DNA from: Escherichia coli
Lineage (GTDB): Bacteria; Pseudomonadota; Gammaproteobacteria; Enterobacterales; Enterobacteriaceae
NCBI RefSeq assembly: GCF_048403405.1
Contig: NZ_CP183129.1
DNA: 64,000 nt
Reading direction: 5' to 3' (one strand)
This document shows, in pieces, positions 57,387 to 57,515 of this stretch. The first letter of the stretch is position 1, and each line of letters starts with the position of its first letter. Below the pieces are notes generated by a model, which was not told the DNA's origin, did not search any database, and saw only the letters and a list, made by a program, of their open reading frames with translations. The position numbers were made by a program, and so were the translations under genes.

Positions 57387-57434
57387 AATAGCCCCTGTAA
57401 AATTATGGTTTAGTGAAGCGATCTTAATGAGTAA

Positions 57435-57497
57435 ATATGAACAGCGGCACTGGTCAGGATGAACGGCTTACGGCAGAATATGAACAGATATGAACAG
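57435..57497 (-). promoter_or_regulatory. tor boxes (TorR binding direct repeats CTGTTCATAT) in torR-torCAD intergenic region
   Basis: Three perfect copies of ATATGAACAG on + strand (57435, 57478, 57488) plus a degenerate copy (ggatgaacgg, ~57457). Confidence 0.85.
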
Positions 57498-57515
57498 AAT
57501 GAGTAAAACCCTCTG

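Follow-up and report, generated by a model that had tools for sequence, protein, structure and literature searches.

The control region between torC and torR was analysed in a window of 64,000 nucleotides from Escherichia coli (contig NZ_CP183129.1); the window is the whole stretch of DNA at its full length. Positions 3781-63470 of the window are collinear with K-12 1,111,999-1,052,000 at 97-98% identity, reverse-complemented relative to the K-12 map. The tor genes lie in the same order as in K-12, and torT and torS adjoin the torR side. The genes and the spacer between the two divergent ones are as follows:

53072-53671, minus strand: torD, intact.
53668-56214, minus strand: torA, an NCBIfam TorA equivalog.
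56214..57386, minus strand: torC, which opens the torCAD operon, an NF011606 TorC equivalog.
57387..57515, 129 bp: the divergent intergenic control region, bounded by the torC ATG (minus strand, 57386) and the torR ATG (57516).
57516..58208, plus strand: torR, the gene of an OmpR/PhoB-family response regulator, an NCBIfam NF008034 TorR equivalog.
58181-59209, minus strand: torT, an NCBIfam TorT equivalog.
59292 (start, placed by alignment to K-12) to 62036 (end): torS, an NCBIfam TorS equivalog.

The spacer had originally been predicted to be the torR-torCAD intergenic region, and its limits are indeed the exact gap between the two start codons. Its 129 bp equal the length of the spacer in K-12 MG1655 (torR end at 5955 and torC start at 6085 there). 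TorR, TorC, TorA, TorT and TorS all scored far over the curated cut-offs of their NCBIfam equivalog profiles. TorR reached 427.5 bits against a cut-off of 275 and was covered end to end (residues 1-230 of 230 aa), and TorC reached 883.5 bits against a cut-off of 455. The genes torR, torT, torS and torCAD are intact, and all Tor proteins have the K-12 length with few substitutions. TorC differs from its K-12 counterpart at one residue and TorR at two only, Q19H and S46P, both in the N-terminal half. By the usual layout of the OmpR/PhoB family, this half is the receiver domain, which covers residues 19 and 46. The DNA-binding domain of TorR is intact, with no differences from K-12 outside these two residues.

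Four copies of the 10-bp tor box were found in the spacer:

57488..57497, minus strand: tor box 1, CTGTTCATAT, an exact match, identical to K-12; half of the high-affinity TorR site.
57478..57487, minus strand: tor box 2, CTGTTCATAT, an exact match, identical to K-12; in tandem with box 1.
57457..57466, minus strand: tor box 3, CCGTTCATCC, degenerate, matching the consensus at 7/10 with the GTTCAT core intact; identical to K-12.
57435..57444, minus strand: tor box 4, CTGTTCATAT, an exact match, identical to K-12; promoter-proximal for torC.

The four boxes are direct repeats, all on the minus strand, which is the reading direction of torC. In that direction, the torR ATG is followed by 18 nt, boxes 1 and 2, 11 nt, box 3, 12 nt, box 4, 48 nt, and the torC ATG. 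The start-to-start distances are 10 bp between boxes 1 and 2, 21 bp between boxes 2 and 3, and 22 bp between boxes 3 and 4. A repeat finder that was blind to the motif retrieved the same family of four copies with spacings of 22, 21, and 10. Thus, the three perfect boxes and one degenerate box of the original prediction are all there, as three exact CTGTTCATAT and one 7/10 CCGTTCATCC. Its statement that the repeats occupy most of the spacer was too strong, since the boxes add up to 40 of the 129 bp (31%) and the array from box 1 through box 4 spans 63 bp (49%).

Over the 64 kb, the exact decamer CTGTTCATAT was found three times where 0.14 copies are expected, and all three copies are in the torC-torR spacer; none of 100 shuffles reached three copies. 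Counted over both strands, the window contains 51 GTTCAT cores, which corresponds to about 0.10 expected per 129 bp, and the spacer has four of them on one strand. Besides the four boxes, no 10-mer of the spacer is under 4 mismatches to the tor box. At up to two mismatches, the tor box is not enriched in the window (66 found vs 52 expected), and thus the signal is a local cluster and not a dispersed regulon. These counts give no evidence of extra TorR sites in the window.

Two other elements of the spacer were considered and rejected. A cryptic fifth box, TTGCTCATTA, directly follows box 4 in register and agrees with the consensus at 6/10 positions in K-12 and 5/10 here; it was rejected because its core is not kept in Salmonella (TTGCGGAATA) or Edwardsiella (TTAATCAATA). 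A 5-codon open reading frame, ATGAGTAAAACCCTCTGA (57499-57516), with its stop overlapping the torR ATG, was considered as a leader peptide or a case of translational coupling. It was rejected because Salmonella, Edwardsiella, and Providencia do not conserve this stretch. No Rfam RNA family was matched within or near the spacer. Furthermore, the box array is flanked by two exact copies of a 10-nt direct repeat, AATGAGTAAA (read as TTTACTCATT on the torC strand), one after box 4 at 57426-57435 and the other before box 1 at 57498-57507.

When aligned to K-12 MG1655, the four boxes and every base between them were identical column for column, so the repeats do correspond to the K-12 tor boxes. Over the whole spacer, 126 of 129 positions are identical. 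The three single-base differences all lie between box 4 and the torC ATG:

57432, torC strand: A in the window, G in K-12.
57400, torC strand: T in the window, C in K-12.
57391, torC strand: C in the window, T in K-12.

In complete E. coli genomes, positions 57433-57525, which run from box 4 to slightly beyond the torR ATG, are 100% identical to the window in 4,715 of 5,416 (87%). The exact torC-side stretch of the window (57377-57446) is found in 1,003 of 5,412 (about 18%), O157:H7 strains included; both figures are counts of identity bands. K-12 appears to carry the minority allele at 57400 and 57391, and representative alignments suggest that the commonest E. coli allele differs from the window solely by G at 57432. 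The tor spacer had roughly 5,420 matches, six of them on plasmid-typed records, and a few genomes have two copies. Two natural variants of the array were seen. E. coli OkiPb01695 (NZ_AP042570.1) has a 43-bp deletion between the identical decamers of box 2 and box 4, which leaves a spacer of 86 bp with two tandem boxes beside the torC -10, while box 3 and the putative torR -35 and -10 are gone. In E. coli 1604D011, box 3 is CCATTCATCC instead of CCGTTCATCC, which alters the otherwise invariant GTTCA core.

The 20-mer made of boxes 1 and 2 was scanned against 100,044 species, one genome per species, and gave 20 matches. Twelve of them are flanked by TorR and TorC homologues and two, at truncated loci, by TorC alone. 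The tor-flanked matches are from Escherichia, Salmonella arizonae and diarizonae, four Edwardsiella, four Providencia, and two Grimontia. The remaining six, from metagenome-assembled genomes of Bacteroidales, Lachnospiraceae, Clostridia, and Synergistaceae, were taken as chance matches because TorR and TorC were not found nearby. Since boxes 1 and 2 were the search pattern, their conservation across genera is circular, and boxes 3 and 4 are the ones that were not used in selection. In 17 aligned spacers from five genera, the GTTCA core of box 3 and the TTCATAT core of box 4 are invariant and at the same spacing. From box 1 to the torR ATG, the sequence has diverged freely across the same five genera, which belong to two orders. 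The boxes accompany torR and torC in every genus examined. In Providencia vermicola, box 2 is followed by a further tandem decamer resembling a box, TTATTCACAT (7/10), the third in the row, which adds exactly 10 bp, and therefore boxes 3 and 4 retain their helical phase relative to the tandem site.

A consensus scan for promoters and terminators over 57300-57600 reported no sigma-70-like site and nothing else. Candidate promoter elements were instead placed by conservation:

57421..57426, minus strand: TAAGAT, putative -10 of the torC promoter, 8 nt downstream of box 4, proposed from cross-genus conservation.
57451..57456, plus strand: TGGTCA, putative -35 of the torR promoter, matching TTGACA at 4/6, 17 bp upstream of CAGAAT.
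57474..57479, plus strand: CAGAAT, putative -10 of the torR promoter, matching TATAAT at 4/6.

TAAGAT is kept in Escherichia, Salmonella, Edwardsiella, and Providencia, and Grimontia has TACTAT at the same offset. Edwardsiella and Providencia have CAGAAT or CAAAAT at the corresponding place. TGGTCA is inside CTGACCAGT, a block that four genera keep between box 3 and box 4. The block (57447-57455, minus strand) is 9-10 bp long and occurs in Escherichia, Salmonella, Edwardsiella, and Providencia, not in Grimontia. TAAGAT and this block probably mark the torC -10 and the torR -35, and the block may instead be the site of another factor. The arrangement TGGTCA-N17-CAGAAT is under the threshold of the promoter scan and would put the torR start near 57486, within box 2. 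Box 2 would then overlap the last two bases of the torR -10 and contain the torR start. The negative scan and hexamers matching at only 4/6 each would be expected for an activator-dependent promoter and for a weakly expressed regulator, but do not amount to proof. These conserved elements are a small point of comparative footprinting; they refine known biology and open nothing new.

The torR-torCAD region of K-12, with tor boxes 1-4, was reportedly described by Simon et al. 1995 (Mol Microbiol 17:971) and Ansaldi et al. 2000 (J Bacteriol 182:961). Negative autoregulation of torR is said, in the account of Ansaldi et al. 2000, to act via the high-affinity pair of boxes 1 and 2, which reportedly covers the torR start. 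By the same account, phosphorylated TorR reportedly fills boxes 3 and 4 cooperatively, and the two classes of site are said to need the same helix face.

The four decamers on one strand would thus be sites for TorR, the product of the neighbouring gene. TorR would sit on the tandem high-affinity boxes 1 and 2 regardless of its phosphorylation, and as this pair would lie over the torR -10 and start, TorR would hold its own gene low. In the presence of TMAO, sensing by TorT and TorS would lead to phosphorylation of TorR, and the low-affinity boxes 3 and 4 would be filled cooperatively. Box 4, just upstream of the torC -10, would when occupied activate transcription of torCAD. The geometry of the spacer fits this account, with box 2 over the putative torR -10 and start, and with the end of box 4 preceding the putative torC -10 by about 8-10 bp.

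Published work identifies the operator. Boxes 1, 2, and 4 of the TorR operator have been given as CTGTTCATAT and box 3 as CCGTTCATCC (PMC9239176), equal to those found here. EMSA in the same study shows TorR on boxes 1, 2, and 4, and box 3 is described there as a 7/10 site of low affinity (PMC9239176). According to PMC5294996, which cites Ansaldi 2000, TorR occupies the high-affinity site and blocks RNA polymerase whether it is phosphorylated or not, whatever the growth conditions. Binding of TorR and induction of torCAD by TMAO via the boxes are thus published for the box sequences of K-12 and Salmonella, which are the same as in the window (PMC9239176, PMC5294996). Moreover, torR is negatively autoregulated and the copy number of TorR is very low (PMC9436347). 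The autoregulation of torR that was originally proposed for this region is therefore a published property of boxes 1 and 2 (PMC5294996, PMC9436347), and the putative torR hexamers would be consistent with it.

Taken together, the spacer is almost certainly the canonical control region between the divergent genes of the TMAO respiration locus in E. coli, carrying the TorR operator in its standard form, and nothing observed speaks against this. The analysis shows that the boxes are present, equal those of K-12, have the same spacing, and are conserved, and that all partner genes are intact. TorR binding, the affinity hierarchy, autoregulation, and cooperativity are taken from the literature, and the exact promoter hexamers and start sites are our own predictions. 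The operator is already known, and the strain has an intact K-12-like circuit for TMAO sensing and respiration. The original view that core regulation is unchanged holds for the boxes and their spacings, which equal those of K-12, and for TorR, which differs only at residues 19 and 46; it does not extend to the whole spacer, where 126 of 129 positions agree. The region matters only as an annotation control: the original prediction placed a textbook operator to the base and was right about the number of boxes and the logic of the divergent promoters, which supports its annotation accuracy in the window.

The layout could be canonical while its function has changed, if lineages with A at 57432 express torCAD at a different basal or induced level because of this base. 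We consider this unlikely. Position 57432 is the sole base at which the window departs from the apparent majority E. coli allele; it is 3 nt downstream of box 4, about -18 of the putative torC promoter, and lies between box 4 and the conserved TAAGAT. The exact torC-side sequence of the window, the only one seen with A, is carried by a sizeable minority of genomes, as counted above. Furthermore, A at 57432 converts TTTGCTCATT to an exact second copy of TTTACTCATT, the decamer that precedes box 1, so that this flanking repeat is perfect in the A allele only and 9/10 in K-12. However, the position is outside all boxes and the putative -10, and it alternates across genera, with A in E. albertii, E. 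whittamii, Edwardsiella, and two Providencia, and G in Salmonella and P. vermicola. This alternation argues for neutrality. Because A at 57432 is widespread in the species, at a position that varies from genus to genus and belongs to no conserved element, it is most likely neutral; that it is a natural cis-regulatory variant which could shift the basal level of torCAD or its inducibility by TMAO between lineages is a doubtful proposition.

It is scarcely credible that the decamers lack a regulatory role and arose by chance, or through slippage as tandem repeats of a spacer rich in AT. Boxes 1 and 2 repeat each other perfectly, head to tail, as replication slippage could make them, and the 43-bp repeat-mediated deletion in OkiPb01695 indicates that the repeats do recombine. 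Against this stand the excess of exact copies over expectation and over the shuffles, the sequence identity of 87% of E. coli genomes over the boxes, and the published binding of TorR (PMC9239176). Moreover, the cores and spacing of boxes 3 and 4 are kept in five genera and two orders, while the adjoining stretch between box 1 and the torR ATG diverges. Conservation and published binding effectively refute the chance or slippage origin.

Other features of the window are noted here. At 8734-11772, a 3.04-kb transposition unit of ISEcp1, blaCTX-M-14, and a truncated IS903B lies within chromosomal clsC. Its insertion site is at about K-12 1107047-1107051, with a 5-bp target duplication, TTATA. 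The bla open reading frame (10432-11307, plus strand) is identical at 291 of 291 residues to annotated CTX-M-14 (WP_001617865.1). Among the complete E. coli genomes of the collection, none covers both junctions of the unit, the best coverage being 93%. This chromosomal insertion is more noteworthy than the tor region. At 21361-21410, K-12 1,094,197-1,097,463 (IS3D, ymdE, ycdU) is absent, with about 49 bp between the flanks, and the gap adjoins a tRNA at 21172-21256 that is the positional counterpart of K-12 serX (tRNA-Ser). Rfam matches above the gathering score are at 2300-2342, 15480-15571, 29560-29753, and 63743-64000 (ES036, ES056, Ysr251, and the cspA thermoregulator); the cspA thermoregulator match is 5'-truncated, on the minus strand, at the end of the window.

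The closest known system is the torR-torCAD region of K-12, which shares with the window the 129-bp length, the flanking genes, the divergent arrangement, and the sequence, strand, and spacing of all four boxes, and differs from it in the three bases on the torC side and in TorR (Q19H and S46P). The tor region of Salmonella enterica (PMC9239176) is alike in the decamer of boxes 1, 2, and 4, the GTTCAT core of box 3, the spacing, the CTGACCAGTG block, and TAAGAT. It is unlike the window in that the stretch from box 1 to the torR ATG and the torC leader have diverged, and box 3 in S. arizonae is CCGTTCATTC.

The pho boxes of PhoB are direct-repeat sites for a winged-helix response regulator, with the class II-type activation of the OmpR/PhoB family. 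The pho-box half-site CTGTCATA resembles the tor box CTGTTCAT, and the proximal repeat ends about 10 bp upstream of the -10, which is about the distance from box 4 to the putative torC -10. The closest NCBIfam neighbours of TorR are ArcA, OmpR, and PhoB. The repeats might then be mainly operators for another regulator of this family such as PhoB, with TorR secondary, but this is extremely improbable: the tandem period is 10 bp here and 11 bp in pho boxes; the boxes occur together with torR and torC in all the genera compared; and published genetics and EMSA assign them to TorR (PMC9239176). Read as a TorR operator, the tor region also differs from pho boxes in its design, since it combines a high-affinity tandem pair with two dispersed low-affinity boxes and doubles as the autorepression site of the divergent regulator gene.
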